64,000 nucleotides of DNA from Patescibacteria group bacterium (GCA_041649575.1 JBAZMW010000003.1:58102-122101); one strand, 5' to 3'. Positions 11,097 to 35,606 are shown, counted from the first letter of the stretch. Translations and numbers: made by a program. The notes: a model not told the origin generated them from the letters alone.

Positions 11097-11286
11097 GCGT
11101 CAGGCGGGCGGGCGAAATCGTTGCTCTGTCAGTTGAACTACGTTGGCTCTAGACCAACCCTGGCTGACCCGTTAATTTAACTGGTTTATAAATCAAAATG
11201 CGATTTTATTCTAACATAAAAAACTCGATTTTACAATAATCTTAGCTATTTACAATTTTTATCTAAAATAAGAATGTTTTTAAACC

Positions 11287-11315
11287 TTGACAAAATAAAA
11301 ATTAAATTATATAAT
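11287..11315 (+). promoter_or_regulatory. perfect consensus sigma70-type promoter TTGACA-N17-TATAAT
   Basis: ttgaca (11287-11292), 17-nt spacer, tataat (11310-11315); followed by a leader hairpin caggcttcaaaaagcctg and RBS GGGGAGG before the ATG at 11404. Confidence 0.6.
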
Positions 11316-11403
11316 AATATATGCTCTTTATAATTTGGATTTTGATAGTCTAATCCGAGGACAATAATTCAGGCTTCAAAAAGCCTGGGGGAGGATAAGT
11401 TAG

Positions 11404-13008: not shown

Positions 13009-13038
13009 CGGCGGAAAAACAACGAGAGACGAGAGGAG

Positions 13039-13341
13039 GTGCAGACAGATATGATAGACACAAGGAGCTTTTCGCGAGAAGCCAAGGAATTGATGCGCCT
13101 GTGCCCTGTAAGTGAACACAGCGGGGAACCCACTGGTACGGACATCTCCACGGTAATTGCCGAACACCCCGAGCTCGTTTCAGGACTCTCCCAATATGTT
13201 TCCTGGGTCCGGGAGGTGGGCATGGCCATTGCGGAAACAACGACAACTCCGGCGATTGGCCACCCGGTTGCCAAGACTGTCCGGAAGGTACAGGCCCACG
13301 CCAGCGACGGCGACAAACCGAAATCCGAACCCCGCACCTAG
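13039..13341 (+). CDS. hypothetical small protein (100 aa), second gene of the GC-rich island
   Basis: RBS GAGGAGG 8 nt upstream of the ATG; same strand and composition as the upstream gene; a terminator follows. Confidence 0.35.
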   Translation: MQTDMIDTRSFSREAKELMRLCPVSEHSGEPTGTDISTVIAEHPELVSGLSQYVSWVREVGMAIAETTTTPAIGHPVAKTVRKVQAHASDGDKPKSEPRT

Positions 13342-13363
13342 TTGCGGGCGTACACAACACACA

Positions 13364-13406
13364 AAGCCCTGTCCGGCAGTAATGGACAGGGCTTCTTAAT
13401 TTTTAG
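13364..13406 (+). terminator. rho-independent terminator (aagccctgtcc ... ggacagggctt + T-run)
   Basis: 11-bp perfect stem with 10-nt loop followed by cttaattttta. Confidence 0.65.
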
Positions 13407-13431
13407 AAAAACAAATTTGTCAAAAACTAAC

Positions 13432-16194
13432 TTATTCCTTCTCCCCCCTTCTAACATCAACCTTGCCTTTTTCGTCAAAAACAATCACGTCCCGGCGGGA
13501 CAAACGTTTTTGTAAAATATAGTTGGCTAAAACATCATCGACTTTCTCCTGAATCACCCGGCGCAATGGTCGGGCGCCAAAAACCGGGTCGAAGCCGGCG
13601 ACGGACAGCTCTTCAATAAAAGAATCCGTGGCCTCCAGACCCAAACCGCGCTCCTCCAAAGTCTTGGCCACCCTAAGCAGCATCAGCCGGGCAATGCTCT
13701 TTACTTCCTCCCTGGTTAAAGGTTTGAAGATAATAATACCGTCAAAACGGTTAAGAAATTCCGGACGAAAATAAGCCAATAATTTATCATTGACCAAATC
13801 GTCTTTAACCGATTCCACCTCCTTGCCGGCGCGAACCTGCTCTTGAATAAAAGGAGTGCAAGCATTGGAAGTGGCGATAATAATGGTGTTGGTAAAATCA
13901 ATCAGCCGGCCGCGGCCATCGGTCAAACGGCCGTCATCCATCACCTGCAAAAAAATATTTAAGATGTTAAGATCGGCTTTTTCTATCTCGTCCAACAAAA
14001 CCAGGGAAAAGGGATTTTTTCTAACCGCTTCGGTCAAATGGCCCGGAGAATCCTCGGTGCCGATCAACCGATTAAGACTGGCCGTCTCCTGGTATTCTGA
14101 CATATCCAGGCGAATCATGTTTTTCTCATTGCCGAAATAAACTTCGGCCACGGCTTTGGCCAGCTCGGTCTTGCCGACACCAGTCGGACCCAAAAACATC
14201 AGATTGGTAATTGGGCGCTTGGTGCTTCTAAGTTCGGTACGAGCACGGCGCAAAGCGGTGGAGACCATTTTAACCGCTTCGTTCTGGCCAACAATACGCT
14301 CGTGAATACGCGCTTCCAGATTTAATAGTTTTTCGCTTTCTTCCTGGGTGACTTCGGTGGCCGGTATGTTGGTAAGCTGGGAAATTATTTCGGCCACATC
14401 CTCGCCGGTGACCACCGTCCTCTTGCCTCTGGTTTTGCTGGCCATGGTAGCCGCTTCCTCCAAAACGCTAATCGCTTTGCTGGGCAGAAATTTGTCATGA
14501 ATAAAGCGGCTGGACAAATCAACGGCTTTTTCTATAGCTTCGTAGGTCAGAAAAACCCGATTGCTGTATTCGATTATTCCTGATTTTAGTTCCAAAACTT
14601 GAATCGCGCCGTCGCGGCTGACTTCCGGCACCTTAACCAGCTTGAAAACATCGTTTAAAACATTGTTGCCTTCAATGTATCTGCCATAGTCTCCGACCGT
14701 GGCGGTGGTAAAGCACAAAAAGTTGCCATTTAGCAGATATTTGGCGAAAATTTCCGAAAGATCCAGACTCTCTTCTTCGCCGGTGGTGATGCCAATCAAT
14801 TCTCTGATATTCTCCACCACCAAAATGATATTTTTAGCGCGAATAATTTCCTCCATCACTCTGATTAACCGTTCTTGAGCCTTGTCGGGCGTGGTGCCGC
14901 CAATCAAACTGGCGATATTCAAACTCATTAAGCGCTTGTCCTGCATGCTTTGGGGCACCTCCTCGGTCACCATTTTTTGGGCGATGCCCTCTATAATCGC
15001 CGATTTACCCACCCCGGGCTCGCCAACTAAAATGACATTACGCTGGCCGCCGCTCTCAATCGCGCGAAAAATTTCTTCTAGTTCCTTATCGCGGCCAATG
15101 CAAGGGACAAAATAGCCGTATTTGGCCAAAGTGGTCAAATTCTGGCTGAAATGATCCAAAAATGGCGTGGCCAAAGCCGTCATGGCTCGATCGATATCGC
15201 CCCTGGGCTTAAAACGCGAGGCCGACCTGAAATGCAACCAGTTTTCCATTAAAATCTGCTGGAAACCCTGCCACATGACGACATTATTGATTTTATTCAA
15301 ATCGGCTTCAAAATCATACATGATATTAGAGACGGTTTCATCGAGCTGGCAAGCGACATAAAACAAATCTATTACCTCCACTCGATGACGATTTTGTAAA
15401 TAGGCATTTTGATAAGCCCCGAGTAGAATTTTTCTAATCTTTAAAGAAATACCGGTCTTTTGACCGACTGGTAACTTGGCTAAAGCTTTAGCTAGTTTTT
15501 CTTCCAGTAGTTCCCGGCTGATGCCCAGACGACCAATAATCAAGGCGACTTTAGAAAATGACAAGAGCGAGGCCAATAGGTGAACCGGCTCGATCTCATG
15601 ATGTTTTAATTTCCTGGCCAATAAATAAGAACGGTTCACGGCCAGCCAAGCATCGTGGACATAGGAAAAAGAGACGTCGATTTTTCTTTTTTTGTCTAAT
15701 TGTTTGAAAAAAGAAAAATTACCAATCCTTTCACTGGCCAATAAATTGTCATCGGCCGATTGGTATTTTTTTTCTTTGATCTTTTTCTGCCGGTCGGCCT
15801 CGCGGCTCAAACGATAAAAAAGATAGAGGTCGGTTACCAGACTTAGCCAAAAAACAGAAGCCCAAAAACCCTCCAAAAACAACAGATTGGTCTGAGGCGA
15901 CAGCGGGCTAGTTCCCCAAATCAGCCGCAGCTGCCAAATCAGAGAAATAATACCAACAGCTCCAAAAACCCAAAGCAGACTGTTTATAATTATTTTAAAA
16001 ATGTTTCGGATCTGATTTTCTAAAACCGCCGAAGAGTTTATGCTTTTGCCCCAAAACAACAAAACGTCGCCCAGCCACAGGCCAAGCGAGCGTCCTTGGC
16101 AGACAGGACACGGCGCTCCGTTTACTTCTCCCCTGCCTTGGCAAGAAGAGCAAAGTAAATAATCCAATTTTTTTTCGTTTGTTTTAGCCGACAT
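13432..16194 (-). CDS. ClpA/ClpC/ClpE-family double AAA+ ATPase with N-terminal zinc ribbon and predicted transmembrane helices
   Basis: two Walker A boxes (GEPGVGKSAI, GPTGVGKTELAKAVA), the DMSEY ... LVLLDEIEKA ... QVMDDGRLTD signature of AAA-2, and a short middle region with no long ClpB-type coiled coil. The N-terminus has CSSC-x10-CPVC and two or three hydrophobic helices. Confidence 0.85.
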   Translation of the reverse strand: MSAKTNEKKLDYLLCSSCQGRGEVNGAPCPVCQGRSLGLWLGDVLLFWGKSINSSAVLENQIRNIFKIIINSLLWVFGAVGIISLIWQLRLIWGTSPLSPQTNLLFLEGFWASVFWLSLVTDLYLFYRLSREADRQKKIKEKKYQSADDNLLASERIGNFSFFKQLDKKRKIDVSFSYVHDAWLAVNRSYLLARKLKHHEIEPVHLLASLLSFSKVALIIGRLGISRELLEEKLAKALAKLPVGQKTGISLKIRKILLGAYQNAYLQNRHRVEVIDLFYVACQLDETVSNIMYDFEADLNKINNVVMWQGFQQILMENWLHFRSASRFKPRGDIDRAMTALATPFLDHFSQNLTTLAKYGYFVPCIGRDKELEEIFRAIESGGQRNVILVGEPGVGKSAIIEGIAQKMVTEEVPQSMQDKRLMSLNIASLIGGTTPDKAQERLIRVMEEIIRAKNIILVVENIRELIGITTGEEESLDLSEIFAKYLLNGNFLCFTTATVGDYGRYIEGNNVLNDVFKLVKVPEVSRDGAIQVLELKSGIIEYSNRVFLTYEAIEKAVDLSSRFIHDKFLPSKAISVLEEAATMASKTRGKRTVVTGEDVAEIISQLTNIPATEVTQEESEKLLNLEARIHERIVGQNEAVKMVSTALRRARTELRSTKRPITNLMFLGPTGVGKTELAKAVAEVYFGNEKNMIRLDMSEYQETASLNRLIGTEDSPGHLTEAVRKNPFSLVLLDEIEKADLNILNIFLQVMDDGRLTDGRGRLIDFTNTIIIATSNACTPFIQEQVRAGKEVESVKDDLVNDKLLAYFRPEFLNRFDGIIIFKPLTREEVKSIARLMLLRVAKTLEERGLGLEATDSFIEELSVAGFDPVFGARPLRRVIQEKVDDVLANYILQKRLSRRDVIVFDEKGKVDVRRGEKE

Positions 16195-16204
16195 TTAAAA
16201 TAGC

Positions 16205-16570
16205 TTAAAATAATAAAGTTATAAATTTATAGACAACCATCAGAGGCAGGGCTAGCCAGCCCAGAAATAAACAAAAAATTAAAAGCGCCCAAATTGCCAG
16301 CGCCAGGGCGCGAAAAACAATTTGGACCAAACGCATGAAAAAACTGATTAGCCGACCCTGCCAATCGGTTTGGCTGTACATCGGCTGGAAAAGATTGACA
16401 AGCCAAACGCGGACGCCGATAGTTCTTTCACCGTTTAAAAATTTTTGCCAGAAAAACAGACCGGTTTTTTTGGCGCCGACGGTGTACCACCAAAAAGGGA
16501 AATAAACCGCGTCCAAAAACACCTCCAGAAAAACTGATTTAATTGGGCCTAAAACAATGCCTTTGAGCAT
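16205..16570 (-). CDS. hypothetical membrane protein
   Basis: 121-aa ORF with hydrophobic helices; no recognisable motif. Confidence 0.35.
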   Translation of the reverse strand: MLKGIVLGPIKSVFLEVFLDAVYFPFWWYTVGAKKTGLFFWQKFLNGERTIGVRVWLVNLFQPMYSQTDWQGRLISFFMRLVQIVFRALALAIWALLIFCLFLGWLALPLMVVYKFITLLF

Positions 16571-16603: not shown

Positions 16604-17623
16604 TTAAAAAACCCGTTCTAACTTATATAGCCAATAATAATTTAATAATCTCTCACGCACCTTATGACCATTGCCGTGGCTTAACAGCCCTAAATATGAT
16701 TGCAAAGTCGCGTTAGTCGGACTAATCTTAATTCTATTTATGGACTTTCTCTTGGTGGTATTCCGCAATACCCGATGGTCAGTAAAATGAACCCAACCAA
16801 GATAATCAACTCCCGAGGCCATTGTTCTTATGGATATTTTATTGGGATGAAGAGTGAGCTTTAATTCCTTAGACAAAAATTGACCTATTTCTGGTAATAT
16901 TTTTTCTAGATACTCTTTGTCGTCATTGAGAACCATAAAATCATCGGCATAGCGCAAGTAATATTTCACTTTTAATTTATGTTTTACCCATTGATCAAAA
17001 TCATTCATGTAGACATTGGCCAGTAGTTGCGAAGTGAGATTGCCAAGTGGCAGCCCGATATCCTGGCCGTAAATCTTACTATCATAACTCTCAATTACCT
17101 CGTCGAGCAGACTCATAATATCTCGGTCGGGAATATAGCGGGATAAGCTATCCATAAGGATTTTATGATCGATACTGTCAAAAAATTTCCTGATGTCACA
17201 TTTCAAAACCCAGCAGGTGCGAGAGTGATTTTTGCTTGTTTTGTAGGCCAAAGCACGGAATCTGTTCATCGCTTTATGCATTCCCTTATCATTGCGGCAA
17301 GAGAAAGAATCGGCGATAAAAGTCCTGTCAAAAAAGGGATAAAGAATTCGATAGATAGTATGATGAATCAAGCGGTCGCGGACGCTGGCTTTGTGGATAT
17401 GCCGACGCTTAGGATCGGTTATATAGAAATCAACATAGCCGCCATGACAGTATGTTCGATTGGCCAAATCCTCGTTTAATGATAAAATATTGTCGAGCAG
17501 GTTACGAGAAAATATTTGGACGTCCAGCTTCATTTTTTTGCCAACGATAAATTCTCGCCACGCGGAAAATAAATTTTCTAAATCAATAATCGAATTATAG
17601 TTATGGCTCAGTTGGATTTTCAT
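16604..17623 (-). CDS. DGR-type reverse transcriptase
   Basis: RT motifs including YADD (RYADDFMVL) and the DGR-specific GLPLGNLTSQLLANVY ([IV]GxxxSQ); N-terminal LENLFSAW. The start is chosen at the internal ATG (MKIQLSH...) downstream of the G10 tract; the track ORF extends to 17683. Confidence 0.85.
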   Translation of the reverse strand: MKIQLSHNYNSIIDLENLFSAWREFIVGKKMKLDVQIFSRNLLDNILSLNEDLANRTYCHGGYVDFYITDPKRRHIHKASVRDRLIHHTIYRILYPFFDRTFIADSFSCRNDKGMHKAMNRFRALAYKTSKNHSRTCWVLKCDIRKFFDSIDHKILMDSLSRYIPDRDIMSLLDEVIESYDSKIYGQDIGLPLGNLTSQLLANVYMNDFDQWVKHKLKVKYYLRYADDFMVLNDDKEYLEKILPEIGQFLSKELKLTLHPNKISIRTMASGVDYLGWVHFTDHRVLRNTTKRKSINRIKISPTNATLQSYLGLLSHGNGHKVRERLLNYYWLYKLERVF

Positions 17624-17639
17624 AATAATTCCTTTAAGT

Positions 17640-17649
17640 CCCCCCCCCC
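17640..17649. repeat. homopolymeric C10/G10 tract in the RT 5-prime region / avd-RT divergent intergenic region
   Basis: 10 consecutive C on the plus strand; lies about 17-26 nt upstream of the proposed RT start codon. Confidence 0.9.
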
Positions 17650-17674
17650 AACGGGTTTTGATAATTTTCCAATT

Positions 17675-17995
17675 TTGACGCAATTAAAGGAAGGGTATAA
17701 ATTGTGGCACGGCTTCTTAAATCGCCTGCCTCGCACTACGCGCTATACTCTGGGGACAAAAATCGATAATATCTTTACGGATTTAATTGCCACCGCCTTA
17801 ACCGCCAAGTTTGCCAGACAAGATGAAAAAATTATCAGGCTAAAACAAATCAGCGAGGGTCTTGATCATCTCAAATACTTTCTGACGATACTGTGGGAAA
17901 TAAAAGGGATAGACAGTGGCAAACTCTCCGCTTTGGGCAGTCGTCTGGCTGCCGTCGGAAAAATGGTCGGCGGATTACTCAAGTCAATTTCATAA
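17675..17995 (+). CDS. Avd-like accessory variability determinant (four-helix-bundle / 23S-IVS protein family)
   Basis: LPRTTRYTLGTKIDN and LGSRLAAVGKMVGGLLKSI match the FPKEEKYxLGxQIRR ... LxxLIKSL pattern of the four-helix-bundle family used as DGR Avd. The start is uncertain: TTG at 17675 or 17702 (the track ORF starts at 17603 and would overlap RT). The gene is on the strand opposite to RT, TR and target. Confidence 0.55.
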   Translation: MTQLKEGYKLWHGFLNRLPRTTRYTLGTKIDNIFTDLIATALTAKFARQDEKIIRLKQISEGLDHLKYFLTILWEIKGIDSGKLSALGSRLAAVGKMVGGLLKSIS

Positions 17996-18040
17996 AAAGG
18001 AAAAGAAGGTCTCAAAAACCTTCTTTTCCTTTTTATTTTC
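17996..18040. terminator. perfect 15-bp stem hairpin (aaaggaaaagaaggt / accttcttttccttt, 7-nt loop) + T-run
   Basis: starts 1 nt after the avd stop codon and lies 16 nt 3-prime of the TR on the other strand. Confidence 0.7.
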
Positions 18041-18047
18041 ACATCAT

Positions 18048-18155
18048 CAGGAGCACGAAGCCGATATTGTCGTTGCCATTCTCGTCCCAGTTGTTGCAGT
18101 TGAGCCCGTTGTCGTCGAAGTTGCCAGCAATGAGACGATTGCCGTCGTTCAAGGT
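18048..18155 (-). repeat. DGR template repeat (TR), 108 bp
   Basis: aligns to 18606-18713 with 21 mismatches; 20 of them are adenines on the minus (sense) strand of this copy. Read in the VR frame it encodes TLNDGNRLIAGNFDDNGLNCNNWDENGNDNIGFVL with 10 AAC/AAT codons. Confidence 0.85.
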
Positions 18156-18158
18156 CAA

Positions 18159-18557
18159 TCAATAGTTGTGAATATTGTCTTCCAAAACACCGCCCATTGA
18201 GTTCTCTCTGGGCTGAACCGTATTTGGGGTCATGAGCCCACCAACAATAAACACGGGGTGTGAAAAATGTCCTTGGGATAATTTCCTTGCTCTGGCGCGA
18301 TCCTTAGACAACGCCATTCGGAAGAATAAATTACCTTGTTCTGCGGGCTGGCGTCCGTGGAGACCAGCTAAGTTTAACTTCGCAGTAATGGTAATTATAT
18401 CACAATCGAAAATTTTTATGAAGATAGATATCTGCATTAGCTCCTCGGCTCGAAAATTTAAAAGATTACTTTTACATTTCTCTCGCTCTACGTCGCTTAT
18501 AAAAAAGAGAGGCCTCGGTGCGATGACCAAGGTCTCAAGTGTCCAAGTGTCCAACAA
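18159..18557 (-). CDS. hypothetical ORF between VR and TR (coding status doubtful)
   Basis: 132-aa ORF at the position where avd usually sits, but no four-helix-bundle-like sequence; may be non-coding TR-upstream sequence. Confidence 0.2.
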   Translation of the reverse strand: MLDTWTLETLVIAPRPLFFISDVEREKCKSNLLNFRAEELMQISIFIKIFDCDIITITAKLNLAGLHGRQPAEQGNLFFRMALSKDRARARKLSQGHFSHPVFIVGGLMTPNTVQPRENSMGGVLEDNIHNY

Positions 18558-18581
18558 TCCGAGGCGAGAGCGCCAAGGATC

Positions 18582-19310
18582 CTACTTACCGAGCTTCTCC
18601 ACCCCCAGGAGCACGAAGCCGATCATGCCGTCGCCACCCTCGCCCCAGTCGCGGCAGCGGAGCCCGACGCCGCCGAAGCCGCCAGCAATGAGACGACTGC
18701 CGTCGCGCAAGGTGTCAGACGCCATGTAGAGACGATTCAGCGGTACACGTTCGCCCGTACGCTTGAAATGCGCGAGGATAAGAGCGAACTGAAGCTGAAT
18801 CGAGCCGAATGTTGTGGCGTGATTACCGGGCAATTCGTAGCGCTGTTTGAGTTCGGCGCGGTGCTTTTCCATCGCTTTGATGTTCTTACCCGTGCTGTTT
18901 TCTGCCAGGCGAGGAATCCAGAACACCAAGCAATCGTCGGTGGGGTTGTCGTTGAAATTCCAGCTCTGGAGGTAGCCGAGATTCTCGTAGCAAGGACCGA
19001 CAATCGGGGCGTGCTTCTTCAACGTGAAGCCCTGCTTGATAAGCCATACAACAGGCCCCGTGTAGCCCATCAGAGCCGCCAGTTTACGCCAGGGGGCGAG
19101 ACGGTCTGTGAACTGTGGGAACTGCTCCAGCATCTTACTATCGGATAAGGGAATGGCGAAAGTATTCGCGATTTCTTCTTGCACGAGTGCGGCGAGGAAC
19201 TCTTTCACCTTTCCTGGCTTATCGGCAAAAACCGACATCTCTTCATCGCTGAGGCCATTAAGTGTGGCCAATACCGATACTGCACTTGCCTTACGGTCTG
19301 TCGTCTTCAT
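18582..19310 (-). CDS. DGR target (variable) protein, C-terminal VR; likely C-type-lectin / FGE-like fold
   Basis: 242 aa, about 58% GC; VR occupies the last about 43 codons before the stop (...GFVLLGVEKLGK*); the TR carries AAC codons at the variable sites. Confidence 0.8.
   Translation of the reverse strand: MKTTDRKASAVSVLATLNGLSDEEMSVFADKPGKVKEFLAALVQEEIANTFAIPLSDSKMLEQFPQFTDRLAPWRKLAALMGYTGPVVWLIKQGFTLKKHAPIVGPCYENLGYLQSWNFNDNPTDDCLVFWIPRLAENSTGKNIKAMEKHRAELKQRYELPGNHATTFGSIQLQFALILAHFKRTGERVPLNRLYMASDTLRDGSRLIAGGFGGVGLRCRDWGEGGDGMIGFVLLGVEKLGK
18606..18713 (-). repeat. DGR variable repeat (VR), 108 bp, at the 3-prime end of the target gene
   Basis: TR homolog in which TR adenines are replaced by G/C/T; encodes TLRDGSRLIAGGFGGVGLRCRDWGEGGDGMIGFVLL; followed by GC-rich GGGGTGGAGAAGCTCGG (IMH-like). 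Confidence 0.85.
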
Positions 19311-19512
19311 AACTTGCCTTTCTGCCTACCTGAGGCAGTATTCCCAACCACCATGGCCGAGAAAAAGATGGGGCATTCAGTGGTCCCAACTTTCTTTCTG
19401 CATAATTTACCCTGTAGGAATAGGCACTCAAATTCCACAGGGTTTATCTTAAATTAAACAAAAAGAAAGCTGGAACCTAAAACTTATCAATATATTAATG
19501 AACTAATAATAT

Positions 19513-19541
19513 ATTATACGGCATATGACAAAATTTGTCAA
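19513..19541 (-). promoter_or_regulatory. perfect consensus TTGACA-N17-TATAAT promoter upstream of the DGR target gene
   Basis: on the minus strand: TTGACA (19541-19536), 17-nt spacer, TATAAT (19518-19513); about 200-nt structured leader to the ATG at 19310. Confidence 0.55.
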
Positions 19542-19841: not shown

Positions 19842-19887
19842 CTTATAGATTGTTTTTGATTTAAGTTTTTTTATTCTAACAAATAAT

Positions 19888-20751
19888 TCACATTTTTTCA
19901 ATAGCTTCTCTAAAATCATCTAATTTGCCGTTTTCCGAATTAATCTCGCTAAGCCGGTTGAAAGTCTTCTTGGCCAAGCTCTTCTCCCCCAACTTGATAC
20001 TTAACTCTATTAATTTATCGAGATATTTGGGGTTGTTGGGCACAATGGAAGCCGCTTTCAGATAACAATCCAATGCCTTGTCTGCTTTATCCATTATTTC
20101 ATAAATTTGCCCCAAGTCATCATAATAAACAGCCAGTTGCGGTTCAATGTCTAAAGAACTCAAAAAATCCGTTTCTAATTCTTCGAGACGCTCTCCCTTG
20201 ACCGCCACCGCCTGATTGAATTTTTTGTTGGCCAAGCTTAATTTCAAAAGATACTGGTAAATTTCTTCGGCTTGATTATAATCTTTACGGTAAAAATATA
20301 ACTTGCCCAACAGCTCATAGGCCTCTTTGTTCTTTTTGTCCTTGGCAATGACTTCTATCAGCCTCTTTTCGGCCAAAGAAAAATCCTCCTCGGCGACCAA
20401 TTCTTTGGCTTCGGCAATCAACTCATCGGTTGTAGGAATCTTGATCGGCTCACTGCTTTCTTTAGCCTGGTATTTATGCTCCAAATTGGAAACCCAGGCT
20501 TTTAACTTTTTGAATTGCTCGGCAGCCCTCTGTCCGCGCCCGGAAAAAACACTTCTGATCCTGATCGCCGCCTTGCTGCTATTTCTAAAAAATTTGGCCT
20601 GTAGAATCTTGGCCTTGGCCGAAGCTTGTTTTTCTTCTTTCAGGGAGTTAATATTGATATTTCTCAAGTCGGGCAGATGTTTAAATAATAAATAAAACAA
20701 GCCGGCCAAACTGGCGACGATAATAACGATTAAAATAATTACCAATAACAT
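19888..20751 (-). CDS. membrane-anchored TPR-repeat protein
   Basis: N-terminal TM helix (LLVIILIVIIVASLAGLFYLLF) followed by TPR-like repeats (AYELLGKLYFYRKDYNQAEEIYQYLLKL ... ALDCYLKAASIVPNNPKYL). Confidence 0.65.
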   Translation of the reverse strand: MLLVIILIVIIVASLAGLFYLLFKHLPDLRNININSLKEEKQASAKAKILQAKFFRNSSKAAIRIRSVFSGRGQRAAEQFKKLKAWVSNLEHKYQAKESSEPIKIPTTDELIAEAKELVAEEDFSLAEKRLIEVIAKDKKNKEAYELLGKLYFYRKDYNQAEEIYQYLLKLSLANKKFNQAVAVKGERLEELETDFLSSLDIEPQLAVYYDDLGQIYEIMDKADKALDCYLKAASIVPNNPKYLDKLIELSIKLGEKSLAKKTFNRLSEINSENGKLDDFREAIEKM

Positions 20752-28401: not shown

Positions 28402-29856
28402 TTAATCCGCCATTTCGGTTTGCTCGCCAAACAAATCAATTTTTTCTTTTTTAGCTTTGGCAATCACGCTATCGGCGATTTGGATATTAGCATCGCGCAG
28501 AGCCTTCTGGCTGGTAAAATTGGGCGCGTCCATCATCAGGTCGCGGCTATCACCGGTTTTGGGAAAAACAATCACTTCACGGATATTTGGTTCGTTCTGC
28601 AAAATAGCCACAATCCTATCAATGCCGGCGGCAATGCCTCCATGAGGCGGCGCGCCATACTCAAATGCTTCCAGCATATGACCAAAACGCGCCTTAATTT
28701 CTTGTTCACCCACACCCAATAGTTCAAAAACTTTTTTCTGAATATCGCGCCGATGAATTCTGATAGAGCCGCCATAAATTTCAAACCCGTTTAACACCAA
28801 ATCATAACCATAGGCCCTCCATTTTTGCGGCTCCTCTGGATATTTTTTCATATCTTCCAGATTTGGCATGGTAAAAGGATGGTGACTGGCCACTAATTTT
28901 TTTTCAGTTTTGGAATATTTGAACATCAGAGGGTCTATCAGCCACATAAAAGCCAGTTCACTAGGATCGTGTTTGTCAACTCTTAGATCCGGCTTATCGG
29001 TGCCGTATTTTTCCATACATTCTTCGTAAGTCAGGCGCGGAAATGGCTGCGCTGAGATATTCTTTTCCGGATAAAGCGTTTCTACTAACTTAATCATCAT
29101 GGGCTCAATCAGATTAAAAACGTCTTCCTGTTCGATAAAGCTCATTTCCACGTCCAGTTGAGTGAATTCGGCTTGCCGGTCGCCTCTGGTATCTTCGTCC
29201 CTAAAACACCTGGCGATTTGAAAATATTTTTCCGCACCGGCCACCATTAAGAGTTGCTTGAACTGCTGGGGCGACTGTGGCAAGACATAAAATTTGCCCG
29301 GCCAAAGCCTAGAAGGCACTATAAATTCTCTGGCCCCTTCCGGCGTGCCTTTGGTAAGAACCGGCGTTTCGATATCCAGAAATCCCAAATCCGTCAAATA
29401 ATCCCTGATAAACTTCACCACTTTGGAGCGCATAACCATGTTTTTGGTCATCCGCTGGGTGCGTAAATCAAGATAACGGTATTTGAGACGGGTTTCTTCG
29501 TTTACCTCGGCCGTGTTCTGGTCGATGGCAAAAGGCGGCGTCTTGGCTTCGTTTAAAATTTCAAGTTTGGTCACCAATAGCTCCACCGAGCCGGTGGCAA
29601 TTTTATCATTAATCATATTGGCCGGACGCTCATTGACAGTGCCGACAATGGCCACCACATACTCACTGCGCAGTTTCTCGGCCAAAGCGTGCGTTTCCTT
29701 GTTCGAGGGAATAAACACCACCTGCAAAATGCCGCTACGATCACGGACATCAATAAAAATCAATTTGCCATGATCGCGACGAGTGTGTACCCAACCCATG
29801 ATTTTCACCTCCTGACCTATCTTGTTTGTCACCTCCAAAATCGGAGTTCTTTGCAT
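28402..29856 (-). CDS. aspS: aspartyl-tRNA synthetase
   Basis: class II aaRS motifs (FRDEDTRGDRQAEFTQLD, GFEIYGGSIRIH, GGIAAGIDRIVAIL) and N-terminal OB fold. Confidence 0.9.
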   Translation of the reverse strand: MQRTPILEVTNKIGQEVKIMGWVHTRRDHGKLIFIDVRDRSGILQVVFIPSNKETHALAEKLRSEYVVAIVGTVNERPANMINDKIATGSVELLVTKLEILNEAKTPPFAIDQNTAEVNEETRLKYRYLDLRTQRMTKNMVMRSKVVKFIRDYLTDLGFLDIETPVLTKGTPEGAREFIVPSRLWPGKFYVLPQSPQQFKQLLMVAGAEKYFQIARCFRDEDTRGDRQAEFTQLDVEMSFIEQEDVFNLIEPMMIKLVETLYPEKNISAQPFPRLTYEECMEKYGTDKPDLRVDKHDPSELAFMWLIDPLMFKYSKTEKKLVASHHPFTMPNLEDMKKYPEEPQKWRAYGYDLVLNGFEIYGGSIRIHRRDIQKKVFELLGVGEQEIKARFGHMLEAFEYGAPPHGGIAAGIDRIVAILQNEPNIREVIVFPKTGDSRDLMMDAPNFTSQKALRDANIQIADSVIAKAKKEKIDLFGEQTEMAD

Positions 29857-30086
29857 AGACTAAAAAAGAAAATTTGTTAAAATTTGTTAAATTAATTATA
29901 ACAAAAATCGATTTTTTGTTCAATGAAAAAAAGCCACAAATTACCAATGAATCGCGACTTTAAAAATTCTTACCCCAAAAACATAAAAATTCTTAGTTAT
30001 TATGACTTTAAATTTGTTTAATATTTTAATTTTTAATTTTTTAATTTGTTTTTTATTTAAATTTAGCCAAAATAAATAACTAACCA

Positions 30087-30115
30087 TTGACACTAATTTT
30101 CAAAAATGATAGAAT
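30087..30115 (+). promoter_or_regulatory. near-consensus promoter TTGACA-N17-TAGAAT at the boundary of GC-rich island A
   Basis: ttgaca (30087-30092), 17-nt spacer, tagaat (30110-30115); the GC-rich segment starts about 6 nt downstream. Confidence 0.5.
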
Positions 30116-30520
30116 TTTTTATTGAGCGGCACAGTGCTGACTCAAAACCTCGAACATTACAAACAAGAGCGGAGGACAAATCCGTGTATATAAGGAACAT
30201 AGTTCCCGGACAGTTTGTTTAGTTCTTCTCCCAAGAAGACCCGCACGATGCGCGTAATGGCAAGAGACATCGCGTTGACAGCGTTGACGTGAGAGAGAGC
30301 ACTGTGACGCTGGACGTCTCCGAAGATGACGGCTACACGACTGATTTTGAGATAGTGGATTCTGTTAGTTGCTGGAGCCAGCCGGTAGAATTGTGCAGTT
30401 TCTAGTGCAGGAAGAGAAGGCTTGTGAGCGGCGCCGATCCTGGACGCGTCATAGCTTTCGTCCCCGAACCGCCAGCCACGGCCCCGTCCGTACCGGCCAA
30501 ACCATAGAAAGGGCGCGACC

Positions 30521-30860
30521 AATGAGATCAAGAAACGCGGTAGCACTGAAAGCGGGCCAGTTCTTGCTTTTTTCCCGAAGAATCGCTTCCGGGAAAAAGG
30601 TCATGGTAATGGGGCGTGTCAAAGAGATAAGCCCCAAAGGCGACCGTAAGCTGGACTACATCGACCTGGAACTGATGGACGAAGAAAGCCAGATCTGGCC
30701 GGACCACCGTGATTGCCATGACGGCGGCAGAGCAGCGACGCTCTCCCGGCTCCAAGAGCTCTACGGACCAGCGAGAATCACTACGCCCGAAGAAGCCGAG
30801 AGCTTCCAGATGAAAGTGCTGGCGAATCGCGTCGTTGCTATTGTCCGCTTCTTCTGGTGA
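30521..30860 (+). CDS. hypothetical ORF in GC-rich island A (coding status uncertain)
   Basis: 113-aa ORF from the first in-frame ATG; plus-strand direction fits the flanking promoter and terminator; overlapping ORFs of similar length on the minus strand are expected in 60% GC DNA. Confidence 0.25.
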
Positions 30861-30933
30861 CAACGCTGGAGGCGACGCCACAACCGTTGATGCTCTGCCA
30901 TTGCCGCCAGGAGGAAACATGCACATAACACAC

Positions 30934-30975
30934 CCGAGGTTGCGCACGCGCGCGACCCCGGGGTGATTTTTTTAT
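30934..30975 (+). terminator. rho-independent terminator (ggttgcgcacgcgcgcgacc ... ccggggtgattttttta)
   Basis: GC-rich stem plus T7 run; nearly identical to the terminator at 34601-34645. Confidence 0.65.
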
Positions 30976-30985
30976 AACAAAATTT

Positions 30986-31546
30986 CTAAAACAATCTTTC
31001 TACAAAACCGCAACCGCGAGCCGGCTTTTCTGACACCACCTCTATCAGCCGCTTGAGCTCAAAAAAAAGTTGTTTTTGGGTTTGGGCCTGAATTTTCGGC
31101 CGGTAACCCAAGTGCCTCAATAATTCGAAAAGATATTTGTTTAAAGATAATAAATTCTTGGTTTTTTCTTTTTCTTCGCTTAGAGAAAATAAGAATTTCT
31201 CAATAATTTCAAACAAAAAACCGTCAGCCGCCTCATGAATTATCAAACTATCAATCGCCGCCAAAAAATAATTGGCGATAACTATCTTATCCAGATCGGC
31301 TTTAATGGCCGAGTAATTTTTGGCAATGCCGGCGGCGGCCAGACGCTTTGACAGCTGGCCCTCGGCCAGCATTAAATCGCAAATCAAAAACGGCTCCAAA
31401 TGCGAATTGAGCTTGGAAGTGATTTTTTTGGCGCCCTTGGCAATGGCCGTCACCTTGCCAAATAAGCGGGTGTAGAGCGTGTACTGGCAATCATAGTCGC
31501 CGAGAGCGCATTTTTTGAGGACAATGGCTTGAGTGAGATAAGTCAT
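30986..31546 (-). CDS. recO: DNA repair protein RecO (short form)
   Basis: N-terminal OB-fold pattern (AIVLKKCALGDYDCQYTLYTRLFGKVTAIAKGAKK ... LEPF) and 186-aa size typical of compact RecO; moderate confidence. Confidence 0.55.
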   Translation of the reverse strand: MTYLTQAIVLKKCALGDYDCQYTLYTRLFGKVTAIAKGAKKITSKLNSHLEPFLICDLMLAEGQLSKRLAAAGIAKNYSAIKADLDKIVIANYFLAAIDSLIIHEAADGFLFEIIEKFLFSLSEEKEKTKNLLSLNKYLFELLRHLGYRPKIQAQTQKQLFFELKRLIEVVSEKPARGCGFVERLF

Positions 31547-31597
31547 CTTTGAACTAAAGATTTAAAACTAAAAAGGTACAAGAAAAAACAAAGCGGC

Positions 31598-31978
31598 TTA
31601 CTTGCTATCCAAATAACCCTGTAAGGTGAGCATAGCGGCCACATCATCGTCATGGCGGCCGGGCTTTAGCCTTTGTGCCTCCTTGCTGGTAAACCTCTCA
31701 TCATAAAAAACTAATTTTATTTTTAATTCTTGGGCCAAGCGCTCGCCGAAGTCTTTTGTCTTAAAGGTTTGCGGGGATTTTTGGGATTTTTTATTAAGCG
31801 GCAGACCGACAACCACTAGCTGTATTTTTTCCTTGTTAATTATTTCTCTAACTTCCAAGGCCAACCCATTAAAACCAGAATTTTTCAAAATTCCGTACGG
31901 CAAAGCCAGGCCGCTCTCTGTGTCGGCAATAGCCAAACCGATTTTTACTTCACCATAGTCGATGCCAAGTAGTTTCAT
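31598..31978 (-). CDS. ruvX: Holliday-junction resolvase-like YqgF/RuvX
   Basis: MKLLGIDYGEVKIGLAIAD N-terminus and RNase-H-like fold size. Confidence 0.8.
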   Translation of the reverse strand: MKLLGIDYGEVKIGLAIADTESGLALPYGILKNSGFNGLALEVREIINKEKIQLVVVGLPLNKKSQKSPQTFKTKDFGERLAQELKIKLVFYDERFTSKEAQRLKPGRHDDDVAAMLTLQGYLDSK

Positions 31979-31990
31979 GTCTGTTTACAG

Positions 31991-32076
31991 TGTCATTGCG
32001 AGGAGCGAAGCGATGTGGCAATCCCGTGGGATCCCCACGTCGCCCGGCCGAATGGCCGGACTCCTCGGGATGACAA
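31991..32076. repeat. structured intergenic repeat, copy 2
   Basis: TGTCATTGCGAGGAGCGAAGC ... GCAATCCCGTGGGATCCCCACG ... CCGGCCgaatGGCCGG ... GGGATGACAA; see copy 1. Confidence 0.6.
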
Positions 32077-32847
32077 TTAAATAGTAGTTATAATCTCTCC
32101 TCCCCTTTCTGTCACCGCGATCGTATGCTCAAAATGCGCCGAGAGCGAATTGTCTCTAGTGGCCACCGTCCAGCCGTCGTCCAAAGTTTCTACCGGCCAG
32201 TCGCCAAAATTAACCATTGGCTCTAGAGCCAAAGTCATACCAACCGCCAGCTTGATGTCGGCAAACCTCTTGTCCACATAATTGGGAATTTGCGGATCTT
32301 CGTGGGGAGAAAAACCGACTCCATGGCCGCACAATTGCCGCACAACACTAAAACCATTTTTTTCAACGTAATCTTGAATGGCGCGGGAAATGTCCGTCAA
32401 TTTATTGCCAGCTTTGGCCTGCCTAATGCCTTTAGACAAAGATTCTTCCGTGACGGAAATAAGTTTTCGGATTTGCCGGCCAACACTACCAACGGCGACT
32501 GTCTTGGCCATGTCGGTAAAAAGCCCGCGATACTCCAGGCCGCAATCAATACCAACGATGTCGCCGCTTTTAATAATCCTATTGGGAACCGGCAGGCCAT
32601 GCACCACTTCGTTATTTAACGAAAGGCAAAGAGCCGAGGGATAGGCATGCTCGGCCCAAGAAGCCCGATAACCCTTAAAACTTGGCTTGCCGCCGGCTTT
32701 TTTTATTAATTCTTCGGCATAAACACTCAATTCTTCGGTGCCAACGCCGGGTTTTATTTTTTTTATTACCAAAGCCAAAACCTGGGCGAGAATTTTCCCG
32801 CCCTGACGCATGGTGGCTATTTGTTGTTTATTTTTTAATTTAACCAT
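32077..32847 (-). CDS. map: methionine aminopeptidase type I
   Basis: pita-bread fold motifs (HGLPVPN, DIVGIDCG, CGHGVGFSPHEDP, HFEHTIAVT). Confidence 0.9.
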   Translation of the reverse strand: MVKLKNKQQIATMRQGGKILAQVLALVIKKIKPGVGTEELSVYAEELIKKAGGKPSFKGYRASWAEHAYPSALCLSLNNEVVHGLPVPNRIIKSGDIVGIDCGLEYRGLFTDMAKTVAVGSVGRQIRKLISVTEESLSKGIRQAKAGNKLTDISRAIQDYVEKNGFSVVRQLCGHGVGFSPHEDPQIPNYVDKRFADIKLAVGMTLALEPMVNFGDWPVETLDDGWTVATRDNSLSAHFEHTIAVTERGGEIITTI

Positions 32848-32932
32848 GACTTAATATTAACAAAAAAAGAATAAAATCACAAAAAGATAAACTTATTTTT
32901 GCCTAAATTTAAACAAAAAATAACATTATTTA

Positions 32933-32961
32933 TTGACATTTAATTTTGGATATGATATAAT
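32933..32961 (+). promoter_or_regulatory. perfect consensus TTGACA-N17-TATAAT promoter of GC-rich island B
   Basis: ttgaca (32933-32938), 17-nt spacer, tataat (32956-32961); RBS AAGGAG then ATG at 33027. Confidence 0.6.
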
Positions 32962-33026
32962 TATATATTGGGTCGGCATCGCGCTGACTCGAGATTTTGG
33001 ACATTTTCAACCAAGGAGAAAGAGAA

Positions 33027-33380
33027 ATGAAACGATTTTTCAGCTTTTTGGAGCGGCTGTTCGCCGGCCTGAGTGCGATAGCTCTACTGCTCGGCCTGAT
33101 GTTTGTGGCCGGCATCTGTCTATCGCTGCCCTGGTACGGCTGGATTGCCAGCTTCCTGGCCGGCATCTTCACCGCAGGGATAAGAGTGATCCGCTGGCCG
33201 ATCAAAATCGCCTTGCTGGTAATCTGGGGGCCGATGATCATGGCTTTCGGCTACTACATCGTCTTCCCGATGGTCGGGCCGGTGAGTATCGTGCAGGGAG
33301 CGATCTGCTGGGTGATATTCATCACGGCGTTTGTGATGGCTCGCTGCGCCGCCGGCATCAAGGACATGCCAACGGACTGA
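33027..33380 (+). CDS. hypothetical small integral membrane protein (island B gene 1)
   Basis: AAGGAG RBS 7 nt upstream; about 4 TM helices (FAGLSAIALLLGLMFVAGICLSLPWYGWIASFLAGIF ... ). Confidence 0.5.
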   Translation: MKRFFSFLERLFAGLSAIALLLGLMFVAGICLSLPWYGWIASFLAGIFTAGIRVIRWPIKIALLVIWGPMIMAFGYYIVFPMVGPVSIVQGAICWVIFITAFVMARCAAGIKDMPTD

Positions 33381-33437
33381 AAAGGCCTATGAGCGGTGCC
33401 TTTGAAAACCGCTTAAGACAAAGAAGGAGTTGCAACC

Positions 33438-34055
33438 ATGATAGAACCTGTTGGTGTTATATTGTGCGGTATAGTGATCTTGGTCCTTGGGGTTGGGTGG
33501 AGTCTAATCTCAAGGAAGAGTCTGGAATTCTTCAGTTGCGTGACACTGGTGGTGCTGGCTGTCGGCCTGTACTTGTCAGTGTCCGATCACCAAATCCCCA
33601 AGACGTCATGGGGAGCCACCACGCCGGGCGCGATGATGCCCTACGACCAGAAACAAGCCACCGACGCGTTCGACGCATCGGCGAAGCAGGCACAAGGAGC
33701 TACAGGGTGTAGCGCCGGAGCAGAGCAAAGGACCGCTGTGACCGCACTGACCCGCGACGAAGAGACGGCGCTGGCCAGACAACGGAACGCAGCGGCCGCC
33801 CAAGAAAGCGGTGAAACAACCGCCGACAAGTGGCCGATGAAGGAGCTAGCCATCACTCCGCTGAGCAAGTGGTTTAACCAAAGGGAAAGCAAGGGGGGCT
33901 GGTCTTCCGTAAACTATGGCTCGTACCGGTGGGTGCGAGTGGATGATAGGCTGGGACTGCAGTCCCATACGGTATATGGCTGTGTGATTTCCTTCGTGCC
34001 AGAGCCGCCGGCCACGCCAGCGACAACGGCCGAAACAAAGGAGGACAAGCCATGA
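33438..34055 (+). CDS. hypothetical membrane-anchored protein (island B gene 2)
   Basis: AAGGAG RBS; two N-terminal TM helices then an Ala/Thr/Gln-rich soluble region; stop overlaps the next start (ATGA). Confidence 0.5.
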   Translation: MIEPVGVILCGIVILVLGVGWSLISRKSLEFFSCVTLVVLAVGLYLSVSDHQIPKTSWGATTPGAMMPYDQKQATDAFDASAKQAQGATGCSAGAEQRTAVTALTRDEETALARQRNAAAAQESGETTADKWPMKELAITPLSKWFNQRESKGGWSSVNYGSYRWVRVDDRLGLQSHTVYGCVISFVPEPPATPATTAETKEDKP

Positions 34056-34219
34056 CCACGACATGGTGGCAAGAATTGGGACGATATGAGTACGAGATTG
34101 AAGTCGGAGAGAACGGCGGCCAACACTACACCGGCCGCCATCGCTGTGTTGGCGGACAATTGGCAGATGGCCGGTGGCCGATCTTTGGTGACAAGTCTGG
34201 CGAGACGGTTTACGCCTGA
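34052..34219 (+). CDS. hypothetical 55-aa ORF (island B gene 3), translationally coupled
   Basis: ATGA overlap with the upstream stop; MTTTWWQELGRYEYEIEVGENGGQHYTGRHRCVGGQLADGRWPIFGDKSGETVYA. Confidence 0.25.
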   Translation: MTTTWWQELGRYEYEIEVGENGGQHYTGRHRCVGGQLADGRWPIFGDKSGETVYA

Positions 34220-34232
34220 AAGGAGACGCGCC

Positions 34233-34586
34233 ATGCAATTCGTACTGAAAGTTGATGACGGTGTGAAAGAGCCGCCGACGCTGCGGGATGCCATCCTGGC
34301 GGCTAAGAAGCTGGCCCACTATGACGCCTTGGTGGCTTTCCTGGCCACTCAGAAAATGACCGAGCCAGGAAGAAAGCGACTGGCCGCTAACGCGGTAGTG
34401 GAAGCAATTGGCCACCTCTGGGTGCAGCCGCCAGGCAAGTGGGCCCAACAAGTGCGAAGTTTTGTGGCGGTCGAAGTTGGCGTCAATAGCGCCATAACGC
34501 TTGAAGACTCCCCGTGTCTCGACTTCCCTGTCTTCAACGTGGAGCCAGAGCGGCCGCCCTCGGTTCCGCCCGAACCCGAGTCCTAA
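34233..34586 (+). CDS. hypothetical protein (island B gene 4)
   Basis: AAGGAG RBS 8 nt upstream of the ATG at 34233 (the track ORF begins earlier at 34086 in the same frame); ends 15 nt before the terminator. Confidence 0.4.
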   Translation: MQFVLKVDDGVKEPPTLRDAILAAKKLAHYDALVAFLATQKMTEPGRKRLAANAVVEAIGHLWVQPPGKWAQQVRSFVAVEVGVNSAITLEDSPCLDFPVFNVEPERPPSVPPEPES

Positions 34587-34600
34587 CCGTACATTCGATC

Positions 34601-34645
34601 CCCTGGGGTTGCGCACTTGCGCGACCCCGGGGTAATTTTTTTATA
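34601..34645 (+). terminator. rho-independent terminator (ggggttgcgc-actt-gcgcgacccc + T-run)
   Basis: 10-bp GC stem (one G-U), 4-nt loop, then ggggtaattttttta; near-identical to 30934-30975. Confidence 0.7.
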
Positions 34646-34928
34646 AATAATATTTTTTACTATCTTTCTTTTTCTTTTTTAGAATATTTAATTTTATTAG
34701 TTTTAAAAGTTACTTTAGATAAAAATGACCACTAAAAAATTTAGAAACAAAATCAAGTAATTAGAGCGTTCCGCCTTCCGGGCGGAAATTTATAACTGTT
34801 TGAAAACCCCGCCTGTAAGGCGGGGTTTGAGTTTTATAAATTAGCGATAATTGCGCTAGATTTTGTCTAAATTTTTTAATGGTCAGAGTTTTTGCGCTAC
34901 TTTTTGCGGCCAAAAAGTAGCAATGGGC

Positions 34929-35606
34929 CTATTTCCACCCCACTTTGCTTCTTAAATCCTCCACCATCCGCCTGACCAGCTGCTGAAAAACAGCTTCAAT
35001 ATGCTTCTCGCCGTCGATCTCTATCAGCAGCCCTTTGTCTCGATAAAATTTTATAATACCATCCATCTCTCGATGATAAATTTCCAGCCGGTTCGTCACT
35101 ACCTCTTCTTTGTCGTCATCGCGCTGAAACAGCGGTTCGCCGCAATTATCACAAATTCCCTCTGTTTTTGGCGGTGAATATTTGATGTGCCAGGAATGGC
35201 CATTTTTGCACACCCGGCGACCAGACATTCTCTCGACTATTGTCTCATCGGAAACCTTAACCAAGAAAACATAATCCACATCCACATTCTTGTCTAAGAA
35301 ATCCGCCTGATCCAAAGTCCTCGGACAGCCATCCAGGACATAACCGAATTTACAGTCGTCTTTTTTTATTCTTTCGACAACCAAATGATCAACCACTTCT
35401 GTTGGCACCAACTGTCCCTTTTCGATATAAGCCTTGACCTCGGCGGACAAAGGGTGACTGGAATCATTTTTTATGGACGAAAGGATTTGGCCAGAAGAAA
35501 CATGAGGGATATCAAAAGTTTTGGCCAATAGACCGGCCTGGGTGCCTTTGCCGGAAACTGGCGGACCTAAGACAATGATCTCAAATGGTTTTTCGTTTTG
35601 AAACAT
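34929..35606 (-). CDS. adk: adenylate kinase (zinc-lid type)
   Basis: P-loop GPPVSGKGTQ, NMP-binding region, LID with CKNGHSWH ... CDNCGE. Confidence 0.9.
   Translation of the reverse strand: MFQNEKPFEIIVLGPPVSGKGTQAGLLAKTFDIPHVSSGQILSSIKNDSSHPLSAEVKAYIEKGQLVPTEVVDHLVVERIKKDDCKFGYVLDGCPRTLDQADFLDKNVDVDYVFLVKVSDETIVERMSGRRVCKNGHSWHIKYSPPKTEGICDNCGEPLFQRDDDKEEVVTNRLEIYHREMDGIIKFYRDKGLLIEIDGEKHIEAVFQQLVRRMVEDLRSKVGWK

Follow-up and report, generated by a model that had tools for sequence, protein, structure and literature searches.

Independent transcription units of deviant GC content that lie between genes adjacent in relatives are known as morons (PMC3594210), and such units are not expected to share their regulatory ends (PMC2839356, discussion). 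In lytic T4-like phages, promoter-early stem-loops (PeSLs) form composite intergenic units, in which repeated strong sigma-70 promoters with A/T-rich upstream sequence and terminating stem-loops of the GGGG...CCCC type flank and insulate ORFans; recombination and mini-circles have been shown experimentally for these units, and their authors knew of no case in a cellular organism (PMC2839356, PMC4122927). The present analysis concerns two GC-rich islands, A (~30058-30977) and B (~32903-34646), in a 64,000-nt stretch of DNA from a Patescibacteria group bacterium (GCA_041649575.1), which have both a promoter end and a terminator end in common. The whole stretch is called the window below, and positions are counted from its first nucleotide.

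Islands A and B resemble phage morons of the HK97/HK022 type in that each has its own promoter and terminator, a deviant GC content and a position as extra DNA between otherwise adjacent genes. They differ from morons in lying within a cellular core operon (secY-adk-map...aspS), in giving no phage match and, in the case of B, in occupying a slot that was apparently inherited over a deep divergence; moreover, their regulatory ends are shared. Like PeSLs, they combine a conserved promoter, a hairpin and a GC-rich terminator around differing ORFan cargo, as do the units of another Patescibacterial contig described below. Unlike in PeSLs, promoter and terminator stand at opposite ends of the cassette, only two copies are known, and the setting is a cellular Patescibacterial chromosome; A and B are known from sequence, with no recombination product seen, and membership in the PeSLs is not claimed. 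In our preferred reading, to which we assign a probability of roughly 0.6, A and B belong to one lineage-specific family of autonomous, moron-like cassettes, the ends of which have been copied or homogenised by recombination. Patescibacteria have tiny genomes and many unexplained small proteins, and the gain and turnover of such genes are poorly understood. In the present genome, antisense and self-contained cassettes interrupt, at two places, a housekeeping operon that is usually continuous, and their ends are kept while the cargo changes.

Insertion of Two Cassettes into a Housekeeping Gene String

The initial annotation had described two GC-rich islands separated by recO, ruvX and map, and this layout is borne out. 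The host genes form a string on the minus strand (aspS, recO, ruvX, map, adk, secY and ribosomal protein genes), and the islands lie on the plus strand; A separates recO from aspS, and B separates adk from map (Table 1). The GC content of the islands is 54-59%, that of the neighbouring genes ~42-46%, and most of the window is at 38-46%. In the closest relative in GTDB (L003, with a Map protein 66% identical), adk and map overlap, ruvX, recO and aspS follow tightly, and neither island is present. The adk-map gap, as estimated, is at most 222 nt in all 112 of the 112 fetched loci that carry both genes on one strand, and 2,081 nt in the window. From the layout of L003 and this comparison of gaps, A and B are inserted in a run of genes that is hardly ever broken up. 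The recO stop codon lies only 8 nt past the end of the island A terminator, and no host gene is damaged. Map-based scans for empty sites or swapped cargo in close relatives returned nothing above 66% (GTDB) or 53% (JGI) identity.

Since the source is a metagenome-assembled genome (MAG) and the composition switches sharply at the island borders, the islands might be foreign GC-rich fragments that were joined to the host sequence during assembly at AT-rich or hairpin repeats. Against this stand the colinear host genes on both sides of both islands and the host-like AT composition at the promoter and terminator ends; the map-to-cassette junction, moreover, is found again in two further samples that represent another lineage. 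Across 13.6 kb spanning both islands, the window agrees to 100% with an independent Logan assembly, and this exact reproduction argues against a chimera; we consider an assembly artefact scarcely credible.

Common 5′- and 3′-Ends

A repeat search of the window recovered a plus-strand sequence of 45 nt in two copies (30933-30977 and 34602-34646) with 89% identity, so that the terminator repeat of the initial annotation is real and lies where it had been placed. Allowing up to 3 mismatches, a scan for its 28-nt core, GCGCGACCCCGGGGTRATTTTTTTATAA, finds these two places in the window, and 100 shuffled sequences yield no match. Folding gives -26.9 kcal/mol (z -5.8) for the copy in A and -31.0 kcal/mol (z -6.7) for that in B, each followed by U7. 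Both copies have the form of an intrinsic (Rho-independent) terminator, with a GC-rich stem of 12-14 bp and a T7 run 2-3 nt beyond it, and the copy in B is the top-ranked terminator-like site in a local scan. These terminators are predicted to stop the cassette transcripts before they enter recO or adk in the antisense direction; antisense transcription may have consequences for the split host operon.

An alignment of the island starts revealed a second common module, which the initial annotation does not mention. Its elements follow in the order of an A/T-rich tract (TAAATTTA-N3-AAAA), ATTGACA, a 17-nt spacer ending in ATGA, TAkAAT, ~6 nt, a hairpin and GrACATT, and 54 of 72 positions (75%) are identical from the -35 box to GrACAT. 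The hairpin motif CGGCA-N4-GCTGACTC (17 nt) occurs only twice in the window, in islands A and B. The 10-bp stem is predicted to start at, or a few nt from, the 5′-end of the transcript; the version in A folds at -10.5 kcal/mol (z -2.7). In B, the -35 box begins 85 nt from the map start codon. The upstream promoter tract was considered as evidence of homology and dropped, because its pattern also matches 8 AT-rich phage contigs and is that of generic strong promoters. The consensus TTGACA-N17-TANAAT has 4 matches in the window against 0.07 expected, and each precedes a GC-rich unit, in agreement with the initial annotation.

With common promoter/hairpin 5′-ends and terminators, A and B are complete, self-contained transcription units. 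Three working parts are proposed: a near-consensus sigma-70 promoter with A/T-rich upstream sequence and a TG-extended -10 box, a 5′-terminal stem-loop, and a strong intrinsic terminator. Stabiliser hairpins at the 5′-end, such as that of the Escherichia coli ompA leader, protect mRNA from 5′-end-dependent decay. The stem-loops of A and B resemble this type in their predicted location a few nt from the 5′-end, and a GC-rich stem with a U-tract closes the 3′-end; the difference is that here the function is deduced from position and structure. On these grounds, the 5′ stem-loop would shield the cassette mRNA from 5′-end-dependent decay. The modules are candidate promoter, mRNA-stabiliser and terminator parts for the emerging genetics of Patescibacteria.

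The common sequences might instead be the standard strong promoter and terminator of the organism, used throughout the genome, with their presence in two neighbouring islands being coincidental. The generic nature of the upstream promoter pattern would fit this explanation, and the 64 kb examined are part of a source contig that alone measures 191,558 bp. Nevertheless, in a stretch that contains many dozens of genes' worth of host sequence, both the hairpin motif (17 nt) and the terminator core (28 nt) are confined to the islands, with two occurrences each. The other GC-rich units and the host genes of the window carry different terminators, and A and B also agree in bases of the loops, tails and leaders, positions at which a generic signal would be free to vary; we regard coincidence of standard parts as improbable. 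An exact search with the terminator pattern GCGCGACCCCGGGGTNATTTTT gave no match in viral, GTDB-genome and JGI-metagenome collections, which says little about genome-wide use of the terminator because these collections evidently lack the source genome. Run on 1.9 Mb of fetched loci, nhmmer models of the 5′- and 3′-modules recovered A and B and weakly also two contigs of a second lineage (L083 and L084, see below), and nothing else.

Table 1. Features of islands A and B, their host genes and the other GC-rich units of the window.
Feature	Position	Strand	Remarks
Island A promoter	30058..30115	+	UP-like A/T-rich tract (TAAATTTA...AAAA), TTGACA-N17-TAGAAT, TG before -10; aligns with B promoter
Island A 5′ hairpin	30122..30145	+	UUGAGCGGCA-CAG-UGCUGACUCAA, one bulged A; at predicted transcript start
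Island A decayed gene	30184..30510	+	Within 480-nt 'leader'; Shine-Dalgarno and GTG start, two in-frame TAG stops
Island A intact open reading frame	30609..30860	+	83 aa, ORFan; GC content at third codon positions (GC3) 0.69
Island A terminator module	30929..30977	+	12-bp GC-rich hairpin with one mismatch, then T7 + ATAA
Island B promoter	32903..32961	+	UP-like tract, TTGACA-N17-TATAAT, 12/12 consensus positions, TG-extended
Island B 5′ hairpin	32968..32992	+	Perfect 10-bp version of A hairpin; at predicted transcript start
B1	33027..33380	+	117 aa, ORFan; upstream Shine-Dalgarno AAGGAG
Conserved non-coding element	33385..33419	+	GGCCTATGAGCGGTGCCTTTGAAAACCGCTTAAGA; between B1 and B2
B2	33438..34055	+	205 aa; hydrophobic N-terminus, proline-rich C-terminal tail
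B3	34052..34219	+	55 aa, ORFan
B4	34233..34586	+	117 aa; one true homolog, P0006
Island B terminator module	34601..34646	+	Perfect 14-bp hairpin, then T7 + ATAA
aspS (host)	28402..29856	-	Divergent from island A promoter
Candidate new aspS promoter	29923-29895	-	Predicted
recO (host)	30986-31546	-	Between cassettes
ruvX (host)	31598-31978	-	Between cassettes
map (host)	32077-32847	-	Between cassettes
adk (host)	34929..35606	-	Convergent with island B
C unit	11287-13400		C1 (534 aa) and C2 (96 aa); consensus promoter
Target gene of the diversity-generating retroelement	18582-19310	-	GC-rich, 242 aa; consensus promoter 19541-19513

Partial Kinship of the Cargo

The leader of island A contains a frame of 108 codons that starts ~62 nt past the predicted transcription start site, and B1 starts ~60 nt past its own. 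The C-terminus of this frame (GRVIAFVPEPPATAPSVPAKP, followed by its stop) and that of B2 (GCVISFVPEPPAT) are identical at 11 of 13 amino acids; the match scores 58, and none of 1000 shuffles came up to this score, the best of them reaching 45. Several of the nucleotide differences are synonymous, and A and B also give colinear tblastx matches with the motif GxVIxFVPEPPAT in common. Recoding of the two in-frame TAG codons was rejected as an explanation, since recO itself ends with TAG; because TAG is a genuine stop in the source genome, the leader frame is a pseudogene. A large non-coding RNA in the leader was likewise rejected, as its structure is not significant (z -1.6) and has no Rfam match.

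Island A also holds the weaker form of both hairpins, with a bulge in the 5′ stem and a mismatch in the terminator. Together with the B2-like pseudogene, these weaker hairpins make A look like a decaying relative of the B type, and island A would be a degenerating copy. The common modules had been described as surrounding unrelated cargo. This holds for most of the interiors, which are largely dissimilar and without significant similarity, and fails for the decayed B2-like gene of island A. With both end modules and a colinear coding remnant in common, the sequences support the proposal that A and B share a common origin rather than having been acquired independently.

The ends (89% and 75% identity) are far more alike than the interiors, so that uniform divergence after a simple duplication is unlikely and recombination at the modules is indicated. 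Homologous recombination could have copied or homogenised the ends in two ways, namely by duplication followed by replacement of the cargo, or by gene conversion. The PeSL cassettes of T4-like phages follow a like logic (PMC2839356, PMC4122927).

The B Slot in a Second Lineage

An exhaustive HMMER search identified a sole true homolog of B4, the 116-aa protein P0006 (~36% identical). P0006 is encoded on two contigs from different samples, L083 and L084, and its gene is divergent from map on both; the spacing from its -35 box to the map start codon is 86 nt, one more than the 85 nt of island B. The cassette follows the same plan, with an upstream TAAATTTA tract, ATTGACA-N17-TAAAAT, a 5′ hairpin, a leader element, a GC-enriched open reading frame and a terminator that ends in GACCCCGGG-CG-T7. 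In L084, the position of the 5′ hairpin is conserved and its sequence is different. A leader sequence of L084 (~571-606; GGCCTAGAGCGGTGCCTCTAATAAAACCGCTAATAA) is similar to the element at 33385-33419 of the window. This element of ~35 nt (GGCCTAnGAGCGGTGCCT...AAAACCGCTaA) is kept across island B and L084 even though the proteins are only ~36% identical; it can fold into a hairpin of 6-7 bp, has no Rfam match, and gave no viral match when its pattern was searched. The orthologous slot holds four genes in the window and, in L084, a single gene from promoter to terminator. The P0006 gene has 50% GC and a GC3 of 0.67, and map of the same lineage 43% and 0.45.

Map identity among the window, L003 and L083 lineages is 57-64%. 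The same distance from map and the same plan in so distant a lineage indicate that the B slot predates a deep split; that the same site was hit twice with equal spacing is less likely. As the GC enrichment of this old slot has not decayed to the host value, high GC is no mark of recent foreign acquisition, and the view that the GC-rich DNA arrived recently from elsewhere is contradicted by the B-type cassette in the same slot of a second lineage. GC-rich donor homologs of B2, B4 and C1 (a protein of another GC-rich unit, see below) were searched for and none was found.

Recurrence of the Design and a Possible Role of the Ends

An unrelated Patescibacterial MAG contig (L021; 34-37% GC, Map 51% identical) carries, at 12461-16440, tandem GC-rich single-gene units with 55-60% GC, a GC3 of 0.68-0.76 and a TTGACA-N17 promoter ahead of each. 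Units 1 and 2 have a common 5′-module (77% over ~200 nt, the long leader hairpin included) and a common 3′-module (92% over 49 nt from just past the stop codon), and their proteins are unrelated (BLASTP E = 0.27). By eye, the cargo resembles signal-peptide or lipoprotein-type proteins. L021 thus repeats the design of A and B with different module sequences, as an independent recurrence. A blastn self-comparison screen for common flanks across loci used too strict a filter and missed even the L021 repeats.

Of 56 occurrences of TTGACA-N17-TAnnnT in AT-rich loci, 10 have downstream sequence that exceeds the locus by 8 GC points or more, compared with 1.2% of random positions. The ten sites (four in the window, three in L021, and L008 16480 (minus strand), L093 9918 and L069 9585) all lie in Patescibacterial loci, and the DNA after these promoters exceeds the genome by 8-20 GC points; in none of the loci with these sites did Rfam report an rRNA or tRNA. 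Sequence analysis shows the anatomy of the cassettes, their insertion relative to relatives, the common modules, the coding remnant and the recurrence in L084 and L021.

It is tempting to ask whether the ends are working recombination scaffolds, that is, homology arms of a cellular counterpart of PeSLs, an explanation that overlaps with the preferred one and adds ongoing mobility to it. Cargo would be excised, inserted and swapped between slots or cells by host homologous recombination, plausibly fed by natural transformation, given that a ComEC (competence) gene is present at 55280-56782. In its widest form, Patescibacteria might possess fixed chromosomal expression slots, even within the ribosomal-protein/secY-adk-map operon, in which lineage-specific modules serve as homology arms. 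Through these arms, ordinary homologous recombination or natural transformation would duplicate, replace and exchange GC-rich ORFan cargo, for the most part proteins that are secreted or belong to the envelope, with no need for a dedicated recombinase. The much greater similarity of the ends than of the interiors fits this, as do the different cargo at orthologous slots, the tandem array of L021 with the same pattern around unrelated cargo, and the breaking of both the L083 and the L084 contig at the cassette. PeSLs, being ORFan-flanking strong sigma-70 promoters and stem-loops that recombine, offer a precedent (PMC2839356, PMC4122927). On the other hand, there was no sign of a presence/absence polymorphism, of a circular junction or of the same cargo in another context; every cargo protein is a singleton of the source MAG; the viral, GTDB and JGI collections and the 1.9 Mb of fetched loci yielded no further module match; and the B slot looks vertically inherited. 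We therefore hold the scaffold explanation, in its narrow as in its widest form, to be tentative and rather unlikely. If the ends do act as scaffolds, the idea of the PeSL as a mobile regulatory cassette would extend from lytic phages to cellular genomes, a testable route for ORFan turnover in Patescibacteria would be at hand, and the lasting GC enrichment (8-20 points in several lineages) would mark a recombining, shared gene pool. If they do not, A and B are simply a diverged paralogous operon pair, which would be ordinary.

Several points weigh against the reading of A and B as one cassette family with recombined ends. The likeness of their cargo rests on one 13-aa motif, the remaining remnant being not significantly similar. 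With two copies only, selection on the ends may account for their likeness as well as recombination does, and among the relatives found, none is so near that an empty site or a cargo swap could be traced nucleotide by nucleotide. The module count comes from a 64-kb window, and the modules might be commoner elsewhere and not tied to cassettes. The functions of promoter, hairpin and terminator are predictions from consensus, and the lasting GC-richness of the cassettes is not accounted for. From the DNA we infer the activity of promoter, hairpin and terminator, the recombination history and the function of the cargo.

Search for a Dedicated Mobile System

The initial annotation had proposed an integron-like or phage moron-like origin for the islands. 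The anatomy is indeed moron-like, with an own promoter, an own terminator, deviant GC and extra DNA relative to relatives. The resemblance to integron cassettes consists in small, mostly ORFan units bounded by a structured, hairpin-forming 3′ element; the differences are that IntI, attI and Pc were not found nearby, that attC core motifs are lacking, and that here the units have their own consensus promoters and are separated by host genes rather than forming a co-oriented array. A dedicated mobile system of this kind, or a non-autonomous element of the IS200/IS605 type using its end hairpins as recombination sites, would be in keeping with hairpins at both ends, with a direct repeat around island A and with a large serine recombinase in the window. 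The repeat is a perfect 11-nt sequence, TTATAACAAAA, at 29896-29906 and 30972-30982, which brackets island A plus 180 nt of AT-rich upstream sequence; it is of marginal significance (p ~0.016), and the -10 box of the candidate aspS promoter lies partly within its left copy.

Other observations speak against such a system. Among the Pfam-scanned ORFs (open reading frames) of the window, no integrase or transposase adjoins the islands, which have housekeeping genes as neighbours, and no tyrosine integrase was found; the only recombinase among them is the large serine recombinase (1334-2653), ~27 kb from the islands in a separate defence island. The terminator arms, GGGGTTGCGC and GCGCGACCCC, do not fit the attC cores GTTRRRY and RYYYAAC; in a reading of the sequence, GTTGCGC departs from GTTRRRY. 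The left and right end hairpins of IS200/IS605 elements are similar to each other. In A and B, the 5′ hairpin has no sequence relationship to the 3′ hairpin, and with two copies in the window and no transposase among the scanned ORFs, the cassettes do not conform to the IS200/IS605 type or to palindrome-associated transposable elements (PATEs). Island B has no significant border repeat (p 0.67), so that short direct repeats at the cassette borders are inconsistent between A and B. The presence of own promoters and the opposite-strand, non-array placement likewise count against the integron-like part of the proposal, which we regard as very improbable, together with its IS200/IS605-type variant.

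The island containing the serine recombinase (1334-10345) is a mobile/defence island beside tRNA-Trp and tRNA-Thr. It also encodes a DUF4411 protein, an IrrE-like peptidase with a helix-turn-helix domain, and a complete type I restriction-modification system (hsdR 4455-7529, hsdS 7519-8781, hsdM 8756-10345).

Cargo Genes and Neighbouring Host Sequence

Each of B1-B4 is preceded by a good Shine-Dalgarno sequence. The cargo genes have 57-59% GC and a GC3 of 0.61-0.79, against 43-47% and 0.47-0.52 in host genes, with a normal coding pattern over the codon positions. Their proteins had no match in Pfam, PHROGs, PADLOC or NCBIfam; each is a singleton, and all come from a single NCBI MAG (locus tags WC518_02750 to 02780). 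A word-seeded search through 5.8 billion proteins returned no homolog of B2 with E <= 0.01. B1 resembles, by eye, a small multi-pass membrane protein with hydrophobic stretches. The structure model of B4 (predicted local distance difference test, pLDDT, 69) was too poor for a structure search. Rfam reported nothing at gathering score in the window and nothing at E <= 1 within 29900-34800. A phage or plasmid origin was considered and rejected, a phage match being found neither for island A DNA nor for the C1 protein. The cargo would consist of fast-evolving small proteins that are restricted to Patescibacteria and partly membrane-anchored.

Proline-rich tails of the form F-x-x-EPP...PSVP occur in the island A remnant (30466-30510), in B2 (34000-34055), in B4 (34530-34586) and at the C-terminus of P0006, and may represent a shared C-terminal motif of several cassette proteins.

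A terminator-like hairpin belonging to adk lies at 34804-34828 on the minus strand. The AT-rich spacer between island B and adk (34726-34885) has a 38-nt inverted repeat (76% complementary) that encloses two GC hairpins, at 34771-34790 and 34804-34828, the second of which resembles the adk terminator on the minus strand.

Other GC-Rich Units of the Window

A common origin had been proposed for all four GC-rich units of the window, that is, A, B, the C unit and the target gene of a diversity-generating retroelement (DGR). This does not extend beyond A and B: the C unit and the DGR target share only the generic promoter with them, their leaders and terminators differ, the A/B module is absent from both, and the k-mers they have in common with A and B are at chance level.

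C1, the larger protein of the C unit, has 40 homologs, all from Patescibacteria where the source is named. In three fetched contexts a small partner ORF follows each homolog, and in one the pair again lies near clpB. The C1/C2 pair is ~11 GC points above its surroundings in every genome examined (the window, L093 9918-11891 and L095 ~4900-6882), with 47% GC in a 36% GC genome and 55% in a 43% genome, and each has its own TTGACx-N17 promoter and a strong terminator. From its sequence context, C1/C2 is a native Patescibacterial gene pair outside the A/B cassette family. The structure model of C1, a confident one (pLDDT 92), has no significant match in PDB, and many of its weak matches belong to the transglutaminase fold; the invariance of C193, H272 and D288 hints at a Cys-His-Asp hydrolase core in the modelled protein.

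The DGR is complete (16604-19541), with a reverse transcriptase gene at 16604-17683 on the minus strand and a bAvd-like accessory gene at 17603-17995 on the plus strand. Its template repeat (18048-18155) and variable repeat (18606-18713) are 81% identical, and the variable repeat lies at the 3′-end of the target gene. Two tRNA-Thr genes bracket the region of the C unit, the clpB-like gene and the DGR, and ~110-130 nt upstream of each lies one copy of a 35-nt direct repeat (11204-11238 and 19869-19903; 77% identical). A duplication of the tRNA promoter region is a more probable source of this repeat than an att site.

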